Assembly (NCBI GenBank): GCA_017460065.1 | Contig: JAFUBT010000003.1 | Location: forward strand, 7,134-71,133 | DNA: 64,000 bases | Direction of reading: 5' to 3' | Origin: Candidatus Saccharimonadota bacterium | Lineage (GTDB): Bacteria > Patescibacteriota > Saccharimonadia > Saccharimonadales > Saccharimonadaceae | Shown: piece by piece, positions 26,803 to 64,000 of the stretch | Position numbering within the stretch: the stretch's first letter is position 1 | Layout: each line of letters starts with the position of its first letter | Program-made: the position numbers and the translations under genes | Notes under the pieces: model-generated | The model's database searches: none | Seen by the model: the letters and a program-made list of their open reading frames with translations, nothing else | Told to the model about the DNA's origin: nothing

Positions 26803-28587
26803 TTATTGTTCGTTTTTGACAGCTCGGTAGCTACCTGCGGCCACCAGCACGCCTAGGGCCGATAGCAACATGCCGTAGCTTTCCGTCGTCAATACGTCAG
26901 CTGTCTTTGGGTTTGAGCCGTCCGCGACAACTTCTTCCGCAGCAGATTCCTCTGTCGGAACAGCCTCGTCATCGCCACCCTTACCCGGCTCTTCCTCTTC
27001 CACTACATAACTCACGAAAGGCTGTTCGAAATCCTCTGCCTCACGTTCGTTGCCTTCCGAGTCAACCGGGTACAAAGTCGCAACTTCATTCGTTGGCACG
27101 CTATATTCGCCCGCCTCCGTAGCCTTATTAACTAACTGCAGTATATAGCTCAGCGACACCCGCTCAAAGTTAGAAATATTCCGCAAAATATTCCAAGTAA
27201 AGCTTTCACCATCGGCGTCATAGTCAATCGTGAATTCGACCACGCCATCCGCGTTCGCAAACTCAATCGTGCTGCCATTGACGGTCTTTGTTAGAGCGGC
27301 CTTCTCTGCGCCGTCCACACCCGTCACGACCAAATTGAAACTGCCCAAATCATACAAATCAAAGTCTTCGCCAATCACGCCGACGACCTTGCTCCCCCTA
27401 CCTAGCAAGTACAAGATATCTTTGCCAACTTTCGCAAAATCCATCGTCTCGCCGTTGTTCATCGCATCAATCAAAGCTACCGTCAAAGGGCTATTTGAAC
27501 CAGATTTGACTGCATAGACATGGTAATTTTCGGCCATCTGGCGCCACTGCTTGAGCGCTTCAAAGATAGCCCGATCCATTGACAAAGCGTGCTCTTTCTC
27601 GCCGTATGGCACATAAACAAAGTCTTCGCTTGGTGCACCGTAGTAGATGTTTGTACCATTAAAAGGGTAGGCATAGCTGTCACCATCGGCCGCAACCCAC
27701 TCTTCTACCTGCGCCATGTAGGCATCCCAGTCGCCACCGGGAATACCGTAGCTACCCTCTTTTACGCCACGTGCAACCGACCAAGACGACGACTCGCCCC
27801 AGTACTGCGCACTGTTTTTATATAACTGGTAATAAATATCCATTACCGTGCCGTCTTCCGACGTCCACAGACGCGTCAAGCCGTCCGTCACTAAAATAAC
27901 GTGTTTGCGCGTATTCGTCACCTCGGCGTCAGCCTGCAACAGCTCTTCAGCCCTCAAGAGGCCGTCCTGGATATTTGTACCACCATACGGCGGATTCTTA
28001 TAGCCTTCTCGAATCAAAGCCTTTATCGCGTCAACATTATCGGCCGACAATTCTACTAGCTCTTGCGTAACTTTTGCATTGCCCTTGAACACAACGATGG
28101 CAATCTTAATTTTCGTACCGTCATCATTCTGCACCTGCGCATACAAATCATCAACCAGTTGTACGGCATCATTAATAGTTGCGCTCTTACAGCTCGAATT
28201 ATCAACCACGAACACAATATCGCTGGCCAAGTTTTCTTCGCTCGACGGCAAAGACAAGGTCACCTCAGTGCGATCATTCTCGTCCAATTCAGTCGCCTCC
28301 TTTGATTTCGAGACGTCCCATTCTTGCGCCGCCGGATCATCGGTGTCCGGCCCCTCGCCTTCATTGCTTGGCTCACTTGTGGTCTGGCCGTCAGCCGTAC
28401 CCCCATCATCCGCGCCGCTAGTCGTTTCGGCATCACCGTTCGTGGCTGGCTGCTCTTCGGCCGTCGGCGTGCTTTCGCTAGCCTCCCCACCGTCTAACGC
28501 GTAGACACTATGCGTCGACATGCCAAAACAGAAGCCAAGCGCCAAAAAACCGGCTAGCACCCACGGAAAAGCCCATGTCTTTTTCAT
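26803..28587 (-). CDS. von Willebrand factor A domain surface adhesin with NPKTA sorting signal
   Basis: Signal peptide MKKTWAFPWVLAGFLALG, acidic linker, VWA core DIVFVVDNSS...ILVTDG. C-terminus NPKTAD (26899-26913) plus a TM helix and RAVKNEQ. Confidence 0.7.
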   Translation of the reverse strand: MKKTWAFPWVLAGFLALGFCFGMSTHSVYALDGGEASESTPTAEEQPATNGDAETTSGADDGGTADGQTTSEPSNEGEGPDTDDPAAQEWDVSKSKEATELDENDRTEVTLSLPSSEENLASDIVFVVDNSSCKSATINDAVQLVDDLYAQVQNDDGTKIKIAIVVFKGNAKVTQELVELSADNVDAIKALIREGYKNPPYGGTNIQDGLLRAEELLQADAEVTNTRKHVILVTDGLTRLWTSEDGTVMDIYYQLYKNSAQYWGESSSWSVARGVKEGSYGIPGGDWDAYMAQVEEWVAADGDSYAYPFNGTNIYYGAPSEDFVYVPYGEKEHALSMDRAIFEALKQWRQMAENYHVYAVKSGSNSPLTVALIDAMNNGETMDFAKVGKDILYLLGRGSKVVGVIGEDFDLYDLGSFNLVVTGVDGAEKAALTKTVNGSTIEFANADGVVEFTIDYDADGESFTWNILRNISNFERVSLSYILQLVNKATEAGEYSVPTNEVATLYPVDSEGNEREAEDFEQPFVSYVVEEEEPGKGGDDEAVPTEESAAEEVVADGSNPKTADVLTTESYGMLLSALGVLVAAGSYRAVKNEQ

Positions 28588-28779
28588 ACTTTCTCCCATT
28601 CCTTATGTTTTCCGACCGCCACAGCCGCATGGCAGCCTTCTACCAGAAACATATACCGCCTACCACTAATTTGCAATCATAAGCATAATATTTTATAATA
28701 TACTTTTTACGCTTAAAATTATTGCTCACCCTCCCCTGCGCCATTACAGTATTATTGTAAAAATCACAACACAAGAAAA

Positions 28780-54060: not shown

Positions 54061-55272
54061 ATGAAATTATCCGAAGAGCTTCAGTGGCGTGGTTTCGTGG
54101 CTGAACACACTTTAGATCAGATATCAGATTTAGACAAAGCTCCACGGAATTTCTATTGGGGCACCGACCCTAGTGCCGACAGCCTCCATATTGGCCACCT
54201 CGCCGCACTGATGATGTGCGCTTGTTTCGTGCGCCATGGCTATACTCCTTACTACCTCGTCGGCGGCGCCACCGGCCAGATTGGCGACCCCAAGGAAAAC
54301 GAAGAGCGCGACCTCAAGAGCCTCGACGAAATCGCCCACAACAAACAAGCTCTCGCCGCTCAGATTATTCGTGTCACACACTCGCCCGCCGAGACCAAAA
54401 TTCTCGACAATAACGACTGGTTCCAAGACGTCAAATTCCTCCCCTTCCTCCGCGAAATCGGCAAGGCTTTTAGCATGACCCAGCTGCTCGACCGCCAATT
54501 TGTCCAAAACCGCATCGGCGCCGGCGGCTCCGGCATTTCTTACGCCGAGTTCAGCTACACCCTTATTCAGGGCTATGATTTCCTGCATCTTTTCCGCACG
54601 CATCAAGTCGACCTGCAGCTCTGCGGCGCCGACCAATACGGCAACTGCACCTCTGGCATCCACCTCATCAAGCGCCTCGAAAACGCCAAGGCCGACGCCT
54701 ACTCTTGCCCACTCATTATCGACAAAGTCACCGGCCGCAAATTCGGCAAGTCCGAAGGCAATGCTGTCTGGCTCGACGCCGCCAAAACCAGCGTCTTCGA
54801 CTTCTATCAATTCTGGCTCAACCAGTCCGACGACGCCCTTGCCGACTACTTCAAGTACTTCACTCTCGTCACCCCCGAAGCACTCGACCAAATCCTCGCC
54901 GCACACCAGCAAAACCCCGGTGCCCGCAGCGGCCAAAAACGCCTTGCCACCGAAGTCACCACGGTCGTCCATGGCGCCACCGCCGCCGCGCAAGCCGCCA
55001 AACTCACCGATTTGCTCTTCGGCAAAGGCGATTTCGCCCAACTCAGCAACGCCGACCTTGAATTGCTCGCTCAAAGCTTCCCCACTACCAGCACCACCAA
55101 TCTCATCGACGCCCTCGTTGTTACTGGCCTCGCCAGCAGCAAAGGCGAGGCCCGCAAACTTATTGCTGGCAACGCTGTCTCTGTTAACGGCCAAAAAGTC
55201 ACCACCGACCAAACACTCACCGCCCCCTGTCTCCTCAAAAAGGGCAAAAACAAGTTCGCCATCGTAAAATAA
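54061..55272 (+). CDS. tyrS: tyrosine--tRNA ligase
   Basis: HIGHLAAL, KFGKS, C-terminal S4 domain. AGGAG RBS. TGc TATAAT at 54024-54032. Confidence 0.95.
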   Translation: MKLSEELQWRGFVAEHTLDQISDLDKAPRNFYWGTDPSADSLHIGHLAALMMCACFVRHGYTPYYLVGGATGQIGDPKENEERDLKSLDEIAHNKQALAAQIIRVTHSPAETKILDNNDWFQDVKFLPFLREIGKAFSMTQLLDRQFVQNRIGAGGSGISYAEFSYTLIQGYDFLHLFRTHQVDLQLCGADQYGNCTSGIHLIKRLENAKADAYSCPLIIDKVTGRKFGKSEGNAVWLDAAKTSVFDFYQFWLNQSDDALADYFKYFTLVTPEALDQILAAHQQNPGARSGQKRLATEVTTVVHGATAAAQAAKLTDLLFGKGDFAQLSNADLELLAQSFPTTSTTNLIDALVVTGLASSKGEARKLIAGNAVSVNGQKVTTDQTLTAPCLLKKGKNKFAIVK

Positions 55273-55304
55273 AGCCCAAAAATCACCACTACCCCAGAAT
55301 ACTA

Positions 55305-55333
55305 TTGACTTTTTTGCAAATCTGTGGTAATAT
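55305..55333 (+). promoter_or_regulatory. sigma70-type promoter with extended -10
   Basis: TTGACT (55305-55310), 17-nt spacer, TGg TAATAT (55325-55333). Confidence 0.5.
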
Positions 55334-55435
55334 ATAGACATAACCGCAACTCTGTTGTGGTAAATTGCACGTTAGCAGCAAGAGATCTTCCCGTCCCAAG
55401 TTAGCAGTTCAGCATGTCAAAAGGAGTTGATATTT

Positions 55436-56197
55436 ATGCTGAGAAAAAACCTTGAAATCGACATCAAAGGGGAAACTACTCATCTTCCCCTCAAAGGCGG
55501 CAGCACTGCCACCAATGCCGACTCCGCCCACATCCAGTGGGATGACGCTCAGTGCGTGGTACTCGTTATCGCGCCCGAATCTGGTGCTTTCCAGACCACT
55601 AAGCAAAGGAAGGCCGTCAAAAAGGAGTTGAAGGCAATTCTGGCGAAAGCCTCCCGTGAAAGCCGTCCAGGTATTGGCGGCTCACTTACGGGCAAAGGCC
55701 TGCCCATCGAGGATGCTCTTTCTGGATTCTGTATCTACTATCCAGAAAGGGGCTTCGATTTAACGAAGGCCAAGCATCAGAAAGCGGCTACCAAACTGTT
55801 TGGCACATTCGATACATGGCTCGACCAAAATTGCGTCGTAGATGAAGCCAAGGAGAAGAAACTCGAACTCGCCGAGTACTTTGACGACCCCGAAGTCGAG
55901 GTCACAGAAGTAGCGGAAGACCGTGAGAGTTACATCGCTCCCACAGTAGCCCCCGACCCTGCGCCTGAACCAACCAAAGCAGACGCCGAGCCTCCCGAAG
56001 GCACACAGGCCGCCTCGCCAGACGATGCTGGCCCCGCTGGCACCAAACGGCTTCGCCCCAAGGACACCACCACACAGGCCAAAAAGCCGGCGCCCACCCC
56101 CATGGTCGGCCCCGCTTACAAACCTTGGTGGCATGGACTCGATCCGGCCGATAAGACCGCTTGGCAAGCCGCGGCTCGCCAATTCCTCGATAGTTAA
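55436..56197 (+). CDS. hypothetical protein with acidic/Pro-rich disordered C-terminal half
   Basis: AAGGAG (55421-55426) lies 9 nt before ATG at 55436. No motif recognised. Confidence 0.5.
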   Translation: MLRKNLEIDIKGETTHLPLKGGSTATNADSAHIQWDDAQCVVLVIAPESGAFQTTKQRKAVKKELKAILAKASRESRPGIGGSLTGKGLPIEDALSGFCIYYPERGFDLTKAKHQKAATKLFGTFDTWLDQNCVVDEAKEKKLELAEYFDDPEVEVTEVAEDRESYIAPTVAPDPAPEPTKADAEPPEGTQAASPDDAGPAGTKRLRPKDTTTQAKKPAPTPMVGPAYKPWWHGLDPADKTAWQAAARQFLDS

Positions 56198-56250
56198 GAT
56201 CTCTTCGCCCATCCTGCCGGTTTTTACCCATTTTTCCGGTAGGACCTCCA

Positions 56251-56284
56251 CCCCCGCTCCTCACCGAGCGGGGGATTTTATTTT
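56251..56284 (+). terminator. intrinsic terminator
   Basis: cccccgctc/gagcggggg stem followed by ATTTTATTTT. Confidence 0.75.
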
Positions 56285-56334
56285 GCATCTCTCCGCCAAC
56301 TCTTGTAGAATATCCCTATAACTCAGGAGGTATA

Positions 56335-57108
56335 ATGAAAAAAGTTCTTGCATTTGACGTTGATCAAACCCTAAACATCGCCAAGATGCCCATCCCCGAC
56401 GAAATCGCTGAACTCCTCATCGGCTGCCTCGACCACTACGAAATCTGCCCTATTTCCGGCCAAAAATACGAGCAATTCCTCATCCAGATTGTTGACCGGC
56501 TCAGCGAACACGGCGCCACGCCAGAACAACTCAGCCACCTACATCTCTTCGTCGCCCAAGGCACCCAATATTATCGCTACGATGCCGCCCAACAAACTTG
56601 GCAGCAAGTTTACAACTACCCACTTACCGACGCACAAGTCGCCAAAATCACTCAGGCCATCGAGCAAGCCGCGACCGAGCTCGGCTACTGGGAGGCTGAC
56701 AAGCTCGCCCCTGGCGACGAAATCATCGAAAACCGCCTCAGCCAAGTCACCTTCTCGGCCCTCGGCCAGACCGCTGGCACCGAGGCCAAGTACGCTTGGG
56801 ACCCCGATTGCAAAAAGCGTGAGGCCATCGTCAAACGCGCCAAAGAAATCGCCCCCGAATTTGAGTACGAGATTGGTGGCACCACCTCTATCAACGCCAT
56901 CACTCCAGGCATGAACAAAGTCTTTGGCATGACTCACCTCATGGAAGAGCTCAAAGTCGAAAAAGCCGACATCCTCTACTTCGGCGATATGACCCAGCCC
57001 GGCGGCAACGATTACCCAGTCGTCCAAATGGGCATCGACACCATCACCGTCCGCAACCACGAAGACACCGCCTACGCTCTCCGCGGCATCCTCGGCGTCA
57101 GCGCCTAA
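56335..57108 (+). CDS. HAD-IIB hydrolase (phosphomannomutase-like)
   Basis: AFDVDQTL (DxDxT), GGTTSINAITPGMNK, FGDMTQPGGNDY. Confidence 0.65.
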   Translation: MKKVLAFDVDQTLNIAKMPIPDEIAELLIGCLDHYEICPISGQKYEQFLIQIVDRLSEHGATPEQLSHLHLFVAQGTQYYRYDAAQQTWQQVYNYPLTDAQVAKITQAIEQAATELGYWEADKLAPGDEIIENRLSQVTFSALGQTAGTEAKYAWDPDCKKREAIVKRAKEIAPEFEYEIGGTTSINAITPGMNKVFGMTHLMEELKVEKADILYFGDMTQPGGNDYPVVQMGIDTITVRNHEDTAYALRGILGVSA

Positions 57109-57165
57109 CGCCGTCGCCTCGCCACCGCGCATACTGCTTTAGCTTTTTCATGCTAAAATAGGCTT

Positions 57166-57948
57166 ATGACTAGTCCAAGAAAAACTTATATCATCGCCAA
57201 CTGGAAGATGAACTTCACCCCTGGCCAAGCCAGCCTTTATCTCCAGCGGCTCAGCAATCGCGTCCAGACTTCACGCGATTTACAAGTTATACTTGCCCCT
57301 TCGACTATCTCTCTGCAACCCCTGTCGCTCCAAATCAACCGGCGTCAATTCAAGCTTGCCGCCCAGAATTTCTACTGGCGCGACTTCGGTCCCTATACGG
57401 GCGAAACCGCCATCTCGCAAATTCGTAGCTTCGTCGACTACGCCATCGTTGGCCACTCCGAGCGCCGCTACCTCTTCCACGAGAGCGAGCAAGATATCGC
57501 CGCCAAGGTCGCCGCCGCCATCCGCAACGGCGTTACTCCTATCCTTTGCATCGGCGAAACATCTTTCGAGCGCAAAAACGGCGAAACCAAATCCGCCATC
57601 TCCGCCCAGCTCCACGAGGGGCTTCACGATATCAGTGCCGAAGACGTCGACAAAGTCATCATCGCCTACGAGCCAGTCTGGGCCATTTCTAGCACCAAAA
57701 ACGCCCGCCCTGCCAAACCTGCTGACATTGCCGATGCCCAGGATCTCATTCGCAAGCAAATCGCTCGTCTCTACGGCAAAGCCACTGCCGAAAAAATCTC
57801 CGTCCTCTACGGCGGCTCCGTTAACGCCGATACCGCTGCTGGTTATCTCGCAATCCCCGGCATCGACGGCCTACTCGTCGGCGACGCCAGCTTGGTCGGT
57901 GATTCGTTCTGTAGTATAATAGAGGCAGCAAAAAGGTATCAGGAATGA
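57166..57948 (+). CDS. tpiA: triose-phosphate isomerase (leaderless start)
   Basis: IIANWKMN, VGHSERR, AYEPVWAI, YGGSVN. TGc TAAAAT at 57151-57159 lies 6 nt before the ATG. Confidence 0.9.
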   Translation: MTSPRKTYIIANWKMNFTPGQASLYLQRLSNRVQTSRDLQVILAPSTISLQPLSLQINRRQFKLAAQNFYWRDFGPYTGETAISQIRSFVDYAIVGHSERRYLFHESEQDIAAKVAAAIRNGVTPILCIGETSFERKNGETKSAISAQLHEGLHDISAEDVDKVIIAYEPVWAISSTKNARPAKPADIADAQDLIRKQIARLYGKATAEKISVLYGGSVNADTAAGYLAIPGIDGLLVGDASLVGDSFCSIIEAAKRYQE

Positions 57949-58790
57949 GCGATCACATCGATTACGACGAACTAGACAAAGCTGTCAACGAAGCAATCAA
58001 ATCTCGTCAGGCCGCCCGCCCCGTCCGCCGTCCTGCCGCAAAAACTGTTGTAAAAACCACAACGCCAAAGGCACCTCGTCCTCATGGCCAATACATTGAT
58101 TTTGTCGCCAAACGCCCCACCGTTAAGCGCAGCGTCGCTCGCCCCGTCACGAAACCTACTATCACCCAACCGGTTGCCCGCGGCCCACAACCGGCCATCC
58201 GGCGCGCTATCGTCCGGCCAACCACCCCTCGCCCCGTCGTCAAACCGGCCGCTCAGTCAACCGCCAGAGCCGCCCGTCCTCTCGCTAAGACCCCAACCGT
58301 CAAGGCACCCACTGCCCAACGCCCCATCGTCAAAGCCGCACCGCGGCCAACAGTGTCTCGCCCGCAACCAAAGCCCAATACCGTCGTTAGGCCAGCCATG
58401 CCCAGCCCTGCCGCTGTGGCCGCCACTAAAGCTGCCGCCGCAACTACCACTCCTGCCCCAGCCACGTCCAAAGATGACACCAAAGCCCCCAACGCCAACA
58501 ATTATTCTCTCGGCGGTCGCTCGCCTTTCATGATTGACGCCAAAGTCGACAAACGCCCCCTTGGCACCAACATCCCCGAGACCACCGCTCGCACTCTCCT
58601 TAGCACCAAGAACACCTACAGCCAAAAAGACCCCAGCGCAACCACCAAACGCCGCAAAGCCAACAAGCATATCATCACCGAATCCCCCAAGAAACACTCC
58701 GGCTGGCTCTGGACGCTCATCGTCCTCTTGGTCATCGCCGGTGGCGCCGGTCTCGGCTACCTTGCCTACCTCATCGTCTTCGCCAACTAG
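57945..58790 (+). CDS. Pro/Ala/Lys-rich low-complexity protein with C-terminal TM anchor
   Basis: Repeated RPxxKP and PTVxxP units. C-terminus GWLWTLIVLLVIAGGAGLGYLAYLIVFAN. The ATG overlaps the tpiA TGA (ATGA). Confidence 0.55.
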   Translation: MSDHIDYDELDKAVNEAIKSRQAARPVRRPAAKTVVKTTTPKAPRPHGQYIDFVAKRPTVKRSVARPVTKPTITQPVARGPQPAIRRAIVRPTTPRPVVKPAAQSTARAARPLAKTPTVKAPTAQRPIVKAAPRPTVSRPQPKPNTVVRPAMPSPAAVAATKAAAATTTPAPATSKDDTKAPNANNYSLGGRSPFMIDAKVDKRPLGTNIPETTARTLLSTKNTYSQKDPSATTKRRKANKHIITESPKKHSGWLWTLIVLLVIAGGAGLGYLAYLIVFAN

Positions 58791-58827
58791 CCAAAGCTCA
58801 CCATCTCTGGTATAATATCCACCACGT

Positions 58828-58905
58828 GGTGAGCGTAGCTCAGTTGGTTAGAGCATCTGATTGTGGTCCAGAGGGTCGGAGGTTCAAATCCTCTCGCTCA
58901 CCCCA
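58828..58905 (+). tRNA. tRNA-His(GTG) with encoded G-1 and C73, CCA encoded
   Basis: G-GTGAGCG acceptor, anticodon loop TTGTGGT, ending CGCTCAC-C-CCA. TGg TATAAT at 58808-58816. Confidence 0.9.
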
Positions 58906-58913
58906 TAACACCT

Positions 58914-58988
58914 GCGAGTTTCATATAACGGTTATTATGTGAGTTTTCCAAACTCAACATGAGAGTTCGACTCTCTCAACTCGCACCA
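58914..58988 (+). tRNA. tRNA-Gly(TCC), CCA encoded
   Basis: GCGAGTTTCATATAACGGTTATTATGTGAGTTTTCCAAACTCAACATGAGAGTTCGACTCTCTCAACTCGCACCA, followed by the tacccc/ggggta terminator. Confidence 0.85.
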
Positions 58989-59068
58989 AGCACAAAAGCT
59001 ACCCCCAACGGGGTATATTTTTATGCCACTTACAACTATCAAAAAGCCCGCCATTCCGGCGAGCTTCA

Positions 59069-59683
59069 TTAAACATTCCTTACCTGTAGAGCTTCCTTAC
59101 ACACTAAAAATCTACCTAAATCACTTTGTCTCCATTTCTCCTTTGTCGCCACGGGGTGCTCCGTGCCAGCATAGTAGATTCGCGCCCGATATTTTACCGC
59201 TCTTCGCAAGATAATCATGCAACGCCGCAAGTGAAAATCACTCGTCACCACTACATAAGACAACTCTTCAACTGCGTATCCCCTCTCCCTCAGCAAAGCT
59301 AGCGAATTAGCCACATTCTCATAGCTATTACGGGCTTGCTCTTCTACTATCAAATCACGGTATTTCATTCCCCATTCCAAAATCTGCGCCGCCAACGCGG
59401 CCGCCTCTGGACGATCTCGCAGTGTATTGTATTTTCCTACACCACCCGAGATGAGGACTTTCTTGACCACCCCTGCCTGATACAACTCGTAGGCTTTTCG
59501 CACGCGCGCAAAATCGTTCTCTGCGCCAAACACAAAAGCAATATCCGCCGCCCCCTCTTTTGGCAGCAACTCCGGCGACGAGAAAAACACACTCTCCTCT
59601 ATCTTTCCTAGCACATCATCCGGCAAGATTTTGACGAGACCACCGAACACCGCAGCACAAGTCTGCAGCTTCATGCGCCTCAC
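59069..59683 (-). CDS. DUF218 (YdcF/SanA/ElyC-like) protein
   Basis: VLISGG, VVVTSDFHLRRCMIILRR. TGg TATAAT on the minus strand at about 59724-59732. Confidence 0.65.
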   Translation of the reverse strand: MRRMKLQTCAAVFGGLVKILPDDVLGKIEESVFFSSPELLPKEGAADIAFVFGAENDFARVRKAYELYQAGVVKKVLISGGVGKYNTLRDRPEAAALAAQILEWGMKYRDLIVEEQARNSYENVANSLALLRERGYAVEELSYVVVTSDFHLRRCMIILRRAVKYRARIYYAGTEHPVATKEKWRQSDLGRFLVCKEALQVRNV

Positions 59684-59988
59684 CCCCTCTACAAATAAGG
59701 CCTGTTTTTAAGGTACTTTGCAGATTATACCACGAATCTCTATAAAATCAATGCGCCAGCAAGCCCACCGCGCATTTCGCATGACATATCAATACTACTC
59801 ATCACCATGGGCTATGACGCTATTTTTTGCCGCGGTCTTCAGGAAACTCACCCTATCACCGCAGCACGGAGTCTTCTGTTTCATCTTCAAAAATCTTAAT
59901 TACTGTTACGAATTTACCGCCGCAGCTCTTACATAGCAGCCCTACGAGCCTAAGCGACAAAGACATGGACCACATTGAAGACGAAAAT

Positions 59989-60114
59989 ACGGGCCGCACC
60001 CCAATCGTATTGTTGGCATTGTTGCCATTCGCATTACCATTGTTACCATTGAACACACCTGCGTTGGCGTTGTTGTTTTCGAAGTTGATCGGCGACACAC
60101 CCCACCACACAAAG
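59989..60114 (-). repeat. DGR template repeat (TR)
   Basis: 126 nt aligning without gaps to 62117-62242. Read in the VR frame it encodes FVWWGVSPINFENNNANAGVFNGNNGNANGNNANNTIGVRPV, rich in AAY codons. It lies 48 nt downstream of the RT stop. Confidence 0.9.
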
Positions 60115-60161
60115 CGCACTCTACGGTCCCTTTTGATGAAGACCCCTCCCAATTTTAGCAA

Positions 60162-61442
60162 TTACCACAAGCGCAACGCAATTCCCTCCGACGAACACTC
60201 CATCAACTCATCTCTCGTTTGTTCCAAGTAAGCCAATGCCATGTCGCCCCTTAGTCCTGCATAAAAATCCCCCATCGCATAAAGCATATTTCTATGCCGC
60301 AAAATCACCTCCGCCTCTCCAGCCGACCGACAATAAGCTCCATAATCCGCCAAGCTCCATCGAAAATCCGGCTGAGGCATCTTTCGTCGCACCGTAGTCG
60401 TCGCTCGCCAATAACCATAATAGCTCGCCAACGAGTGCCAATAGTCAAGTCTATCCTGTCGCGCTAGTTCCCGTAGACGCAACCGGATTCTTCGTCTAGT
60501 CCGCGGCGCCGCATCTACTCGTAACTTCGCCTCATGCGTGCGAAAACGAAAACCCAGAAACACAAACCCTCGCCGACAAGGGAATATCGCCGTCTTCGGG
60601 TTCAGCGCCAAATGATATTCCGTGTCTAGCTTCCGCTCTAATTCGCGCCACACTCGCCGCAGCTTAGCTTTACTAGTTGATAGAATCAAAAAATCATCCA
60701 TGTAGCGCACATAATATCTACAGCCCAACTTCTCCTTGATGTAGTGGTCTAAATCCGATAGATAATATATTGCCAAAAACTGGCTAGTCATAGCACCGAT
60801 ACTTAGCCCTCGTCCTTTCGTGTAGTGCGGTATATCCGTCCCATAACGATTGTTATAAAAGTCCACTGCTTCGTTAATATATTCGCTATCAGTTTCATCA
60901 ATAATCCTGCGCAATATATCCAAAACCTTTTCATCATACATTCGTCTGCGCACCTTTTTCAGCAAAATATCATGGTCAATACTATAAAAATACTTACTGA
61001 TGTCCAGTTTCAGCGCATATATTTCTTTCCCGGGTTCTCGCACCATTATTTGGTGAAAATAACGTTTCGTAAGCGCAATCCCCATTGCGCCACCTCTCCC
61101 CTTACGCGTTGCCACATTTGCCTCAATTAGGCTCTGCTCTAAATACGGTAATAGATAATTATTCGCCACAAAGTGGTTTACAATTTTATCCCGCACCGAC
61201 TGACTCATCACCAGACGCGCCTTTGGTTCAAAAATCATAAATGCCCGATACGGGTCAGGCCTATAGTCCCCCTCACGCAACTCTCTCAAGATACTATACA
61301 AATTTGCTTGCAAATTCATCGCAAAAATCGCCAGCTCTCGCTTGTTTTTGCAGGTCGTGCGCACCACACGCCAAGCCTCATACACTCTATCGTAGGTCAA
61401 GGCTTGGCCATATATCTCACGACTTCTTTGCCGTCTCTTCAC
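60162..61442 (-). CDS. DGR-type reverse transcriptase
   Basis: LSIGAMTSQFLAIYYL (the IGxxxSQ motif typical of DGR RTs) and YVRYMDDFLIL (YMDD). 426 aa with no maturase or endonuclease domains. Confidence 0.9.
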   Translation of the reverse strand: MKRRQRSREIYGQALTYDRVYEAWRVVRTTCKNKRELAIFAMNLQANLYSILRELREGDYRPDPYRAFMIFEPKARLVMSQSVRDKIVNHFVANNYLLPYLEQSLIEANVATRKGRGGAMGIALTKRYFHQIMVREPGKEIYALKLDISKYFYSIDHDILLKKVRRRMYDEKVLDILRRIIDETDSEYINEAVDFYNNRYGTDIPHYTKGRGLSIGAMTSQFLAIYYLSDLDHYIKEKLGCRYYVRYMDDFLILSTSKAKLRRVWRELERKLDTEYHLALNPKTAIFPCRRGFVFLGFRFRTHEAKLRVDAAPRTRRRIRLRLRELARQDRLDYWHSLASYYGYWRATTTVRRKMPQPDFRWSLADYGAYCRSAGEAEVILRHRNMLYAMGDFYAGLRGDMALAYLEQTRDELMECSSEGIALRLW

Positions 61443-61824
61443 GGTGTGCCCATCCGTAAGTAATTGTCTTCATCTCCAGCAATAGCGCTGCCACATGCTC
61501 CAATTTTGCAGATTTCACGCAATGCAAATCATAAACTTGTCTCAGTAGCATATCGGCCAAAGTCAGATGAATCTTCAACTCCGTCAGGTGCTTGCGCCGA
61601 ACATTTCCTACTGTAAAACTAGCCGCATAAATCTCTTGCGCAATCTTATACATTTCCTCCAACAAATGTATCCGAATGTCGCGATGCATATTCGGAATAT
61701 TGTTCGCAATTTGGCTTCGCACATAATTGTCCAAAGCATAAGCCTTATCTGCCAAACGAAACGTGTTGCTGTATTTATTATCCAAAGTCTTACTTAAGCC
61801 TTGTGTCTTTGTTCTCGTCGCCAT
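61417..61824 (-). CDS. avd: Avd-like accessory variability determinant (four-helix bundle family)
   Basis: 135 aa, basic and helical. Sits immediately upstream of the RT and overlaps it by 26 nt. Confidence 0.75.
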   Translation of the reverse strand: MATRTKTQGLSKTLDNKYSNTFRLADKAYALDNYVRSQIANNIPNMHRDIRIHLLEEMYKIAQEIYAASFTVGNVRRKHLTELKIHLTLADMLLRQVYDLHCVKSAKLEHVAALLLEMKTITYGWAHREETAKKS

Positions 61825-61881
61825 CCTTACACCAAGATGGGGCGCCCACTAGCGCCCCATCTCCCTATTTCTTAATTCTTT

Positions 61882-63486
61882 CTAGCGTCTGCGCAAACCG
61901 CGTCGTGCCACTATACTCCCCCCAACTACTACGACCGCAGCGGCGGCCATCACGGCAACCACGCTATCGCTCGTTGCCGGATTCACCGGTGTTTCCGGCG
62001 TCTCCTCTGGCGCCATTTCCTCATCTTCGCTCTCTGTCACCTCAGCGAGCGCCGTGAAAGGGTTTTCACGGCTGCCATCACCGTCAAAAGCGCCAAGCGT
62101 AGATTTTAATGAAACGACGGGCCGCACCCCAAGCGCATGGTAGGCAGCGCGGCCACGCGCATCACCAAAGTCACCAAAGAACACACCTGCGACGGCGTAG
62201 TCGCTCCCGAAGACGATCGGCGACACACCCCACCACACAAAGTTATCGTCAATGTAGGTACCCTTAGCATAGGCCGGATAACCGTTACCGGCCATAATCA
62301 TTTCGGTAGTGCTTAAGAGGCCAACCGGATATTTCAGGGTGCCGTTAGCGACCGTGTAGATGCCGCCCTGGTCAGTGTAATCGAAATTAACGGCGTTCAT
62401 CATGTTTGTTGAATCGTTCAGGCTACTATCTTTTTCCCGGCTGGCACCGTGATAGAAAGTATCGATGGTAGTATCGGTGTAGGAGTAGCCACATTGATCA
62501 AAGTTAGAGCCAAAGTCTGCATCCTTGGTAGAAAGTGAGCCACTGGCAAAGGTTTTACTGCCGTAGAAGATGGTGTCTTCAAGATACTCAGCGGCATCGG
62601 TCATATGTTCGGCATACCAGTTCTCTACGGCAGTTTTCGCCACGGAATCGTGCTCGTTTGCTGCCATCTTAGCAAGAGCAGTCTCCAAGGTATCTCCACC
62701 CGTGAAAGTAAGGAAGTAGCCATTTGTGTTGGTAGCGCTGCCGCGATAGTTTTCGTAGTAAACCTCAGAACAAGTGGTGCCGGTGGTGAGGCAGGTGTAG
62801 TGATGGCCGTTGTATGCGTTGGAGCCGCCAGTGACGGTATCCTGAAGCGTGTAGACCCCGTTGGCGTAAGTGACGTCATTGCCGAAGACGGTAGTGTTGG
62901 AAAAGCTTTTGCTAGTAGTTTCATAGCGCTCGCCGTACATATAGTACATGTCTGAGGGGGAGTTATAGCCGGCGTTGAACTGTGAAACGTCCGCAATGGT
63001 TCCCGGCCAGGTACTGGCGTCGTCAGGATTGAAGCTGTTTATCTTTTCCAAGCTCCAATCCGGGTCACCTAGACATTGGCCGTCGGTTGGCGTTCCATTG
63101 TATAACAGCTTTGTCCCGCCGGTTTCCGTAGTGCGTACAATCAGCCAGCACATGTCGTTCAGGATGACGTTATTGTCCGTCACGTTGCCACGATAGAAGT
63201 ACACTGGCTTGTCGTCATCTTTAGTTTCTTGAAGTATATACAAACCACCGATGTCGCTGATGGGGACGCCGTAGGTTTCGTCGACCTGTTCACCCGTTGC
63301 CGGAGCCTCGTTGAAATCTATCACGGTGTCTTTATCTGCCTGTGAGGCGAGATAATCGTAAAAAGTTTTATCGCCCGTGCCGGCTCCCGCCGCAAAAGCA
63401 TCTATCGGCGTCAGCACACTACTGCCCAGCAAAATACCGCCAGCAACCAGCGCGCCCAACCTTACACTATTCCTAGTTTGACCCAT
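61882..63486 (-). CDS. DGR variable surface protein: signal peptide, large N-terminal domain, C-type-lectin-fold VR domain, NPATS sorting signal
   Basis: MGQTRNSVRLGALVAGGILLGSSVL signal peptide. VR region NFVWWGVSPIVFGSDYAVAGVFFGDFGDARGRAAYHALGVRPVV. Tail PVNPATSDSVVAVMAAAAVVVVGGSIVARRGLRRR. Confidence 0.85.
   Translation of the reverse strand: MGQTRNSVRLGALVAGGILLGSSVLTPIDAFAAGAGTGDKTFYDYLASQADKDTVIDFNEAPATGEQVDETYGVPISDIGGLYILQETKDDDKPVYFYRGNVTDNNVILNDMCWLIVRTTETGGTKLLYNGTPTDGQCLGDPDWSLEKINSFNPDDASTWPGTIADVSQFNAGYNSPSDMYYMYGERYETTSKSFSNTTVFGNDVTYANGVYTLQDTVTGGSNAYNGHHYTCLTTGTTCSEVYYENYRGSATNTNGYFLTFTGGDTLETALAKMAANEHDSVAKTAVENWYAEHMTDAAEYLEDTIFYGSKTFASGSLSTKDADFGSNFDQCGYSYTDTTIDTFYHGASREKDSSLNDSTNMMNAVNFDYTDQGGIYTVANGTLKYPVGLLSTTEMIMAGNGYPAYAKGTYIDDNFVWWGVSPIVFGSDYAVAGVFFGDFGDARGRAAYHALGVRPVVSLKSTLGAFDGDGSRENPFTALAEVTESEDEEMAPEETPETPVNPATSDSVVAVMAAAAVVVVGGSIVARRGLRRR
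62051..62072 (-). promoter_or_regulatory. hairpin downstream of VR (candidate DGR target-recognition cruciform)
   Basis: gccgtgaaa-gggt-tttcacggc, a perfect 9-bp stem with a 4-nt loop, about 45 nt 3' of the VR end on the coding strand. Confidence 0.45.
62117..62242 (-). repeat. DGR variable repeat (VR)
   Basis: 25 mismatches to the TR over 126 nt. Every mismatch is at a TR position that is T on the printed strand, meaning A on the coding strand. 25 of the 34 TR adenines are substituted. Confidence 0.9.
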
Positions 63487-63599
63487 TCCTACTAACCCTT
63501 CCTAATTGTTTTTGACCTTTTTATCTTAAAATTAATTAACTTAAGCATAAACTAAATCACAAATAATTTCAAGTTATTACTGTTGTATTTTTTACCACA

Positions 63600-63628
63600 T
63601 TTGCCCAATCTCCCCTTCTCCGCTATAA
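63600..63628 (+). promoter_or_regulatory. candidate promoter
   Basis: TTGCCC (63600-63605), 17-nt spacer, TATAAT (63623-63628). Confidence 0.4.
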
Positions 63629-63634
63629 TCAAAA

Positions 63635-63703
63635 AAGATACGCCTCTAGGAAACGTATCAATGGGTTTGTTTCGTCTATCCTTTTCTCAAGGATAGACTT
63701 TTT
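63635..63703 (+). ncRNA. candidate ~70-nt small RNA (two hairpins, the second an intrinsic terminator)
   Basis: gatacg/cgtatc hairpin, then gtctatcc/ggatagac followed by TTTTTT, directly after the promoter. Divergent from the DGR target gene. Confidence 0.3.
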
Positions 63704-64000
63704 TACTACTTGAGCAACTTAAAAGAAAGTGTTATTCTGAAGTTAAACAAGGTTAACTGCACTTTCATAACATCCTCCTTTCTAGAGGCCTCTAACGGAG
63801 CCTAGAACGTCGTTCAATGAAGACCCCACACCTCGCCTCCATTTGCAAACGTAGCCCAAACCCAAGAGCATTCTAGAAAACTTCCAGAAAACATGAAAGC
63901 ATAAGTGCGAACATTTCAACTGTTCGCACTTTTTTGTTATACGACAGATCTCTGCTGACGCGATTTTGATAGTGTTTGGCAATTAATAGTAATTCTGGAA

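Follow-up and report, generated by a model that had tools for sequence, protein, structure and literature searches.

The prototype diversity-generating retroelement (DGR) is carried by Bordetella phage BPP-1 and has the order mtd-avd-TR-brt, with the template repeat (TR) lying between the accessory gene avd and the reverse transcriptase (RT) gene brt. Work with BPP-1 has shown that a hairpin/cruciform is needed for efficient retrohoming; its stem acts in a structure-dependent manner, its loop has 4 nt, and it is absent after the TR (Guo et al. 2011, PMC3240598). Published hairpins of this type have stems of 7-10 bp and 4-nt loops, with a GRNA consensus in phage DGRs, and are found 4-34 bp from the variable repeat (VR) (PMC3240598). 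At the RNA level, a duplex that brackets the TR in the so-called cPRT-Stop arrangement has been described for BPP-1 and predicted in 207 of 278 Avd-type DGRs (Handa et al., bioRxiv 10.1101/2023.10.23.563531). Here, we analyze a DGR from a 64,000-nt stretch of a Candidatus Saccharimonadota genome (contig JAFUBT010000003.1; the whole stretch is hereafter called the window), in which the target gene, avd, the RT gene and the TR follow one another in that order, all on the minus strand.

Legionella LdtA, Treponema TvpA and the aquatic DGRs of candidate phyla radiation (CPR) bacteria of Paul et al. 2017 are reportedly chromosomal systems that diversify secreted or surface proteins with a single C-terminal variable domain. 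DGRs have already been recorded in Saccharibacteria, for example in TM7x (bioRxiv 10.1101/258137), and there is a mostly aquatic DGR clade restricted to Patescibacteria (Roux et al. 2021, PMC8144416). The order avd-RT-TR was catalogued as architecture B2 by Wu et al. 2018 (PMC5758913). It is uncommon for a CPR host, because architecture B3, TR-(avd)-RT, makes up 90% of the CPR set in the same survey (PMC5758913).

We conclude, with a probability of roughly 93%, that the locus is a chromosomal and currently active DGR with an avd-RT-TR cassette, carried by a rumen-associated Candidatus Saccharibacteria bacterium. It shares with BPP-1 adenine-only TR-to-VR divergence, an RT with homology along the entire length of Brt, a small basic helical Avd, a G/C-rich 14-nt end common to VR and TR that resembles the initiation of mutagenic homing (IMH) element, a stem-loop with a 4-nt loop 3' of the VR only, and a predicted RNA duplex bracketing the TR, with a stem-loop and adenosines 3' of the TR. 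The two systems also differ in several respects. The BPP-1 element is phage-borne, whereas this one is chromosomal in a CPR bacterium. The TR follows the RT gene instead of preceding it, which puts the 5' strand of the duplex, located in avd in BPP-1, behind the RT stop codon. The VR of Mtd ends at the stop codon, but 77 further codons follow the VR in this target, which is predicted to be secreted and anchored at its C-terminus. The hairpin loop, GAAA/GRNA in BPP-1, is ACCC, and the hairpin is coding and located 44 nt from the VR. Finally, the RT has an extra C-terminal tail of ~80 aa.

With avd, RT and TR on one strand and a single adjacent target upstream, the locus shows no architectural difference from B2 of Wu et al. 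2018. An earlier model-made annotation of this DNA, prepared from the letters alone and here called the sequence-only reading, had the order target-avd-RT-TR right, with the TR downstream of the RT, but the order is not novel, as its place in that catalogue shows. The locus resembles the LdtA/TvpA-type cellular DGRs in being chromosomal and in having one C-terminal variable domain on a secreted or surface protein; the anchor signal here is the sortase-type NPxTxD and not a lipobox. From the bulk of CPR DGRs, as reported, the locus differs in cassette order and in its nearest RT relatives.

Divergence of TR and VR is confined to template adenines

The TR (59989..60114, minus strand) is the invariant donor and the non-target copy. 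The VR (62117..62242, minus strand) corresponds to codons ~416-457 of the 534-codon target gene (FVWWGVSP...GVRPV). Direct comparison at an offset of 2128 aligned the two repeats over 126 nt without gaps and gave 25 mismatches. In every case the lower copy shows a T as printed and hence an A on the coding (minus) strand. By class, there are 12 T>C, 8 T>A and 5 T>G changes on the printed strand, corresponding on the minus strand to 12 changes of A to G, 8 to T and 5 to C, and 25 of the 34 template adenines are therefore altered in the window VR. The chance that 25 randomly placed mismatches would all fall on the 34 T residues among 126 positions is ~3e-19. This re-alignment reproduced the length, the mismatch count and the adenine rule given in the sequence-only reading. 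The same pair was recovered independently by a repeat finder as a 132-nt repeat; because the 6 bases past the 126 nt add one more A-type mismatch and one non-A mismatch, the adenine-only zone stops exactly at the ends assigned above, which are also those first proposed. No second VR was found in the 64-kb window when A was treated as a wildcard, the next best site having 47 mismatches at 92 non-A positions.

Read in the VR frame, the TR gives FVWWGVSPINFENNNANAGVFNGNNGNANGNNANNTIGVRP, in which 14 of 41 codons are AAY, in keeping with the AAY richness that had been noted before. Nearly all TR adenines (32 of 34) occupy codon position 1 or 2, and the VR coincides with the hypervariable block in the protein alignment of the target family. 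A 101-aa open reading frame (ORF; 59856-60161, minus strand) spans the TR in the VR reading frame and is annotated as an 87-aa gene in one public assembly (L001 7324-7587; related contigs and loci are designated by L and a number). Rather than a protein, this ORF most likely represents an annotation artefact caused by the TR.

The VR turns over in nature while the TR is invariant

We compared the window with five further public contigs that encode an identical RT protein (L001-L005), four of which also span the target gene. The TR was 100% identical in the window and all five contigs, whereas the VR occurred as three alleles, one in the window and L003, one in L001 and L004, and one in L002. 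Pairwise, the alleles differ at 23, 21 and 19 positions, all of them TR-adenine positions; for 32 of the 34 adenine positions, at least one of the three alleles carries a change, and none of the alleles contains a stop codon. The contigs carrying the three alleles are otherwise 99.7-99.99% identical. In the closest pair, L001 and L002, 13,281 aligned nt contain 20 mismatches, of which 19 are located in the 126-nt VR and one is at a synonymous site in the RT gene. The VR is thus turning over far faster than the background and according to the DGR rule. These natural alleles show that the DGR is currently active.

Activity had also been proposed in the sequence-only reading, and the proposal is upheld by the three alleles, though not by the substitution load on which it had been based; a dead element would keep that load, so the load in one genome is no proof of activity. 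The related-strain heterogeneity at A-templated positions that had been suggested as a check is what the assembled contigs show. The allele evidence comes from ENA and Logan contigs only, because scans of the JGI metagenome contigs and of IMG/VR for further VR alleles, with N in place of A in the TR pattern, gave 0 matches. Between the window and L001/L002, the target gene also carries five substitutions within 11 nt (62486-62496), ~245 nt upstream of the VR. These changes are not adenine-specific, and the cluster is possibly a small recombination patch.

A conserved hairpin lies 3' of the VR but not of the TR

The IMH-like 3' boundary of the VR (62111..62130, minus strand) reads GGGGTGCGGCCCGT-CG-TTTC and consists of a 14-nt G/C-rich block with a short flank. 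The IMH*-like end of the TR (59983..60002, minus strand) reads GGGGTGCGGCCCGT-AT-TTTC. Thus, the two 3' ends have the G/C-rich 14-mer GGGGTGCGGCCCGT in common, differ in the next two bases and continue with TTTC in both copies. The relatives L086 and L087 also show a VR/TR difference at the IMH-like junction.

Forty-four nucleotides 3' of the VR, the sequence GCCGTGAAA-ACCC-TTTCACGGC (62051..62072, minus strand) forms a potential hairpin/cruciform with a perfect 9-bp stem and a 4-nt loop, which appeared in both the minimum free energy (MFE) and centroid DNA folds. The hairpin lies within the target coding sequence, where it encodes S-R-E-N-P-F-T-A. Its 12-nt core, GAAAAYCYTTTC, is present in a single copy in the window, and no GAAAACCCTTTC hairpin follows the TR. 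The core is found once per locus, 3' of the VR and on the same strand, in L086, L006, L010-L016 and L018. The outer stems covary among these relatives (GTCTCACG.../...CGTGAGAC; CGCTGCG.../...CGCAGCG), and the stems of the window and L086 differ by a G-C to C-G swap. In the window and L086 the hairpin is inside the target reading frame, whereas in Bacilli relatives it follows the target stop codon. This element fits the functional hairpin of Guo et al. 2011.

A predicted RNA duplex brackets the TR

In the predicted MFE fold of the RNA, GGGGUCUUC (60138..60146, minus strand), located between the RT stop codon and the TR, pairs over 9 bp with GAAGACUCC (59876-59868) and so brackets the TR. The 3' strand of this long-range duplex lies 113-121 nt after the TR, directly behind a stem-loop and GAAACA. 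In the spacer RNA 3' of the TR (59868..59988, minus strand), the stem-loop UUUUCGUCUUCA...UGAAGAUGAAA encloses GCUUAGGCUC...GCGGCG and is followed by GAAACA and then by GAAGACUCC. The fold has z=-2.2. The spacer sequence is conserved in L090 (RT 86% identical) and L086 (RT 58%), which have the same cassette order, and compensatory pairs were seen in an alifold of the three sequences.

In 23 non-redundant related DGRs with the motif, we also looked for the best ungapped pairing of the 90 nt that precede the TR with the 200 nt that follow it. In 15 of the 23 loci this pairing begins 4-7 nt after the motif start, compared to 0.53 loci expected with shuffled upstream sequence. The duplex sequences themselves diverge widely across loci (for example TAGGATTGTACC/GGTACAATTCTA and AGGGATAAAACT/AGTTTTATTCCT). 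As predicted, the TR-bracketing duplex with its preceding stem-loop and adenosines matches the cPRT-Stop arrangement. Because the stem-loop and duplex 3' of the TR are conserved, the functional RNA would reach ~59868. The repeats and genes assigned to the element at the outset (59989-63486) all stand, but that span missed these ~120 nt of conserved RNA.

The RT is of the DGR type and is encoded next to an Avd-like protein

The RT gene (60162..61442, minus strand) encodes 426 aa from a GTG start and overlaps avd by 26 nt. Its product contains IGAMTSQ at residues 215-221 (60780-60800) and YMDD at residues 247-250 (60693-60704), and matches Pfam RVT_1 with E=1.3e-18 and PHROG family phrog_1423 with E=1e-88. 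The best PDB match is 8ub7_A, the sequence of which is BPP-1 Brt (E=1.4e-28), and BLASTP alignment to Brt gave 25% identity (E=5e-33) over Brt residues 3-327 of 328. Judged by these similarities, the enzyme is a DGR RT that is closest to Brt.

The accessory gene avd (61417..61824, minus strand) encodes a 135-aa protein that matches phrog_3206, 'Avd protein of DGR', over almost its whole length (E=1.1e-8). It also matches the NCBIfam model DivGenRetAVD with E=1.1e-6, at 28.9 bits, under the curated cut-off of 80. No match to PDB sequences was obtained with either the single query or a 10-sequence profile. The RT with IGxxxSQ and YMDD motifs and the Avd-like protein that the sequence-only reading had placed between the repeats are thus both found there, the latter by its PHROG match.

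The C-terminal extension of the RT (~80 aa; residues ~340-426, window 60165-60425) includes MGDFY at 60261-60275. It had no match in Pfam at E up to 10, and comparison with the part of relative P0018 that matches MutS domain I gave a weak, at best suggestive alignment (E=0.019) in which MGDFY is aligned with GIFY. A separate MutS_I-like (MSL) ORF adjoins avd in L041, L078 and L084. Wu et al. 2018 (PMC5758913) noted that three RT extensions resemble MutS_I and also recorded an accessory MSL gene.

The target has a predicted secretion signal and C-terminal anchor

The target gene (61882..63486, minus strand) encodes 534 aa, comprising a predicted signal peptide (~residues 1-33, ending ...AFA before AG), a conserved body, the variable domain, an acidic linker and a sorting signal. 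The C-terminal sorting signal (61885..61983, minus strand) consists of NPATSD (61966-61983), a hydrophobic helix (61906-61965) and the basic tail RRGLRRR. This is the tripartite layout of sortase substrates, and we predict that it anchors the protein. The target has 794 homologues. Its 24 closest (45-78% identity) have the same layout, with a signal peptide, a well conserved body, a hypervariable block corresponding to the VR, an invariant GDGSxENPF, an acidic linker and a sorting signal. P-x-N-P-x-T-x-D is invariant over these 24 family members, mostly as NPQTSD, and is followed by a hydrophobic segment and a basic tail. We take the NPxTxD motif to resemble the SrtB-type NPQTN rather than LPXTG. 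A second window protein (26803-28602, minus strand; 599 aa) ends in an acidic stretch, NPKTAD, a hydrophobic segment and a charged tail. Because its signal is of the same type, NPxTxD may be a genome-wide surface-anchoring motif in this organism.

Searches of the target against Pfam and PDB sequences returned no meaningful match. A full-length AlphaFold2 (AF2) model had a mean pLDDT of 88.9 and matched DUF6273 proteins in BFVD (E=4e-4). A domain-only AF2 model (residues 325-490) had a pLDDT of 63.8 and no significant PDB match. The modeling suggests that the variable domain may be DUF6273/C-type-lectin-like.

Among more distant homologues of the target, some have a prepilin N-methylation motif and others VWA and tip-pilin domains. 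Tandem arrays of two or three target paralogues, with no RT within 10 kb, are present in two related Saccharibacteria contigs (L093 502-3698, L094 2830-8042). The L094 paralogues adjoin SpaA-domain surface proteins, and the two L093 copies contain VR-like segments resembling targets of a window-like TR; these paralogues may be multiple or remote targets of one DGR. From the homologue contexts (pilin motifs, VWA/tip-pilin domains and SpaA neighbors), we infer an adhesin role for the target. In L001 (1529-3283), a gene for a T2SSE/MshEN-type ATPase of type IV pilus assembly lies just outside the sequence covered by the window, at its high end; it has the orientation of the target gene and is located ~670 nt upstream of it. 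A link of the target family to pili is possible.

Two further features could bear on expression of the cassette. The entire cassette could be transcribed from TTGAAA-17-TATGCT (63544..63572, minus strand), a candidate promoter 58 nt before the target start codon, though a consensus match of this kind is no evidence of function. The 57-nt gap from the target stop to the avd start contains a GC-rich 11-bp inverted repeat, AGATGGGGCGC...GCGCCCCATCT (61835..61862, strand unassigned), which could modulate read-through into avd-RT-TR. No U-tract follows this repeat on the coding strand, and the target-avd gap of L086 (18 nt) has no room for one like it.

The nearest RTs of species-representative genomes are those of gut Bacilli

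Among RT relatives at 80 loci of species-representative genomes, those closest to the window RT (46-54% identity) belong to low-GC gut and rumen Bacilli, Erysipelotrichaceae and 'Tenericutes' metagenome-assembled genomes (MAGs), which have 25-32% GC compared to 50% here. A scan for A-bias found TR/VR pairs in ~40 related loci. The TR is upstream of the RT in nearly all of them, and downstream in L041, L078 and L084 and in the Saccharibacteria relatives L086 and L090. L086 occupies an unrelated chromosomal site, has the same order and target family, and shows 24 of 24 mismatches at A. Another Saccharibacteria DGR (L087-L089) has the order VR-TR-avd-RT.

The DGRs of Bacilli, Erysipelotrichaceae and 'Tenericutes' (L006-L085) resemble the window element in their target body and VR domain, which are homologous at ~35% identity, in the GAAAACCCTTTC hairpin core 3' of the VR and in the GAAACA-plus-duplex RNA around the TR. 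They differ in that the TR is mostly upstream of the RT, the hairpin follows the target stop codon at ~100-120 nt from the VR, and many have an MSL domain, either fused to the RT or as a separate ORF. A CPR host with a cassette that is nearest, among species-representative genomes, to those of gut Firmicutes is somewhat unusual and may reflect horizontal exchange of the cassette.

The cassette lies in a cellular chromosome

The window is part of a cellular chromosome that carries RNase P RNA, tmRNA and ten tRNAs, and the neighbors of the cassette are TyrRS, PMM, TIM, tRNA-His/Gly and a DUF218 gene. A Candidatus Saccharibacteria MAG (locus tag IJ102_01540) encodes proteins identical to the RT and target, and the matching assemblies come from ruminant gut datasets. 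GC content at third codon positions (GC3) is 0.49 for the RT and avd genes, compared to 0.65-0.70 for neighboring housekeeping genes. Identity to L001/L002 breaks at 59025-59039, next to tRNA-Gly (58914-58988) and tRNA-His (58829-58905). On one side, the block containing DUF218 and the DGR cassette (59039-64000) is 99.3% identical to L001/L002, and ~99.7% identical outside the VR; on the other, the housekeeping block 54187-59025 is 95.9% identical. This abrupt step suggests that the segment bearing the DGR was recently recombined or transferred between strains and that a breakpoint lies next to the tRNA genes. Elsewhere in the window, 57945-58790 (plus strand) encodes a 281-aa Pro/Ala/Thr/Lys-rich low-complexity protein with imperfect internal repeats and a C-terminal hydrophobic segment, for which no Pfam family is assigned in neighboring assemblies.

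Discussion

We weighed the active chromosomal DGR against group II intron, retron, prophage and relic readings, all four of which we judge unlikely. A prophage or mobile-element origin, with the target acting as a phage receptor-binding protein like BPP-1 Mtd, would suit the strong match of the RT to the phage RT family phrog_1423 and the best BFVD fold matches of the target, which are phage DUF6273 proteins. It would also suit the lower GC3 of RT and avd, and the 99.3% identity of the DGR block against 95.9% for the adjoining housekeeping genes, with a break by tRNA-Gly/His, could mark a transferred island. However, the flanks are housekeeping genes, with DUF218, tRNAs, TIM, PMM and TyrRS on one side and the type IV pilus ATPase on the other (in L001), and in a relative the same cassette is surrounded by cellular genes at an unrelated place in the chromosome. 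There was no match in 2.9 million IMG/VR contigs and no PHROG match for the target, which instead has a Sec signal peptide and a cell-wall/membrane sorting signal, as do 23 homologues, some of them in arrays by SpaA-type surface proteins. Given this setting, we regard a phage origin as very improbable. The locus might instead be a decayed relic, in which the TR/VR pattern records past activity and the target is no longer diversified; past and present activity are inseparable from one genome, and the unusual ~80-aa RT extension lacks a Pfam match. This explanation is very improbable and is largely refuted by the three VR alleles in nearly identical contigs, the closest pair of which has 19 of its 20 differences in the VR at A. 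Moreover, all of the ORFs are intact, the catalytic motifs are present and the TR is 100% conserved.

The repeats could also be ordinary paralogous or duplicated sequence beside an unrelated RT of a group II intron, retron or defence system, with a coincidental A-bias. Indeed, the highest NCBIfam score of the RT is to group_II_RT_mat, but its 110.8 bits are far under the cut-off of 300, and the scores to the retron RT model (42.3 against 235) and the Drt models are likewise far under their curated cut-offs. None of these scores groups the RT with retrons or group II introns, the placement that the sequence-only reading had named as evidence against a DGR. Rfam at gathering threshold found no intron or retron RNA in the window, matching only RNase P, tmRNA and tRNAs. 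The sub-cut-off RT models and the lack of Rfam intron or retron RNA rule out a group II intron or retron identity. A coincidental A-bias is refuted by the ~3e-19 probability of the A-only pattern and its recurrence in three alleles and ~40 related loci, which leave this explanation a negligible chance.

Several observations nevertheless weigh against parts of our own interpretation of the locus as an active, BPP-1-like DGR with a displayed lectin-like target. Each assembly provides one consensus VR, and within-population turnover is not seen directly; L001 and L004 are identical and may represent the same sample. The ACCC loop is off the GRNA consensus, and a distance of 44 nt is outside the published 4-34 bp. 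Inspection of the window by eye identified no template:primer (TR:Sp) duplex or priming nucleotide. Profile alignment of Avd to BPP-1 Bbp7/Avd with hhalign was weak (107 columns, E=8e-4, probability 24%). For the target, PDB fold matches to the full-length model were also weak, the best being the Lcl C-terminal domain at E=0.54 together with several C-type lectin domains, and Pfam DUF6273 was sub-threshold at E=0.076, although the family exceeds threshold in homologues P0162 and P0148; the C-type lectin fold is a tentative assignment. Finally, a motif search of the 64-kb window for a sortase-like TLxTC ORF found none. As to template:primer pairing, GGGCUGC/GCGGCCC could form 7 bp in the window; this candidate was dropped because it is not conserved in L090.

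Homology to BPP-1, from which we infer a cDNA intermediate, a priming site, roles for Avd, the hairpin and the duplex, surface display and a binding partner, suggests how the active DGR would work. Minus-strand transcription would run through the target gene, avd, RT gene and TR. An RNA of ~280 nt (60146 to 59868) would fold such that the 9-bp duplex brackets the TR, with the stem-loop and A-rich GAAACA after the TR. With RT and Avd bound to this RNA, the TR would be reverse-transcribed into cDNA, with misincorporation opposite the 34 template adenines. The cDNA would then replace the VR in the target gene, with the IMH-like 14-mer and the hairpin 44 nt downstream directing replacement. The TR would never be overwritten, because it has no hairpin and differs at the IMH junction. 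In this manner, ~17 codons, including 14 AAY, would be randomised in the C-terminal DUF6273/C-type-lectin-like domain. Because the target appears to be secreted with a sortase-type NPxTxD signal, the variable face would be displayed at the cell surface. That face is most likely a ligand-binding or adhesin site, and the episymbiont plausibly uses the variable protein to bind host bacteria or other surfaces.

A broader evolutionary scenario can be put forward tentatively, though we hold it to be doubtful as a whole. The element may belong to an animal-gut DGR lineage, distinct from the aquatic CPR clade, that has passed between host-associated Saccharibacteria and low-GC Bacilli or phages of the latter. 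In Saccharibacteria, the TR-plus-spacer module would have moved as a unit 3' of the RT, and the hairpin would have become part of the coding region of its target, which would have acquired a sortase-type cell-wall anchor. As an adhesin, the variable protein would then allow the epibiont to adapt to different host bacteria.

The locus leaves the understanding of DGR mechanism unchanged; it belongs to a well-described class and has a catalogued architecture. Neither the changed cassette order nor the conversion of the hairpin into coding sequence has altered the form of the DNA hairpin and the TR-flanking RNA scaffold, a finding useful for DGR annotation tools and for understanding how targets are recognised. 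For the organism, the analysis reveals a clean and demonstrably active DGR in a rumen Saccharibacteria genome, diversifying a protein that is predicted to be secreted and anchored at its C-terminus. Obligate episymbionts need surface contact with other bacteria, and the target is a candidate for a rapidly adapting host-attachment protein, the natural VR alleles of which could be compared across hosts.

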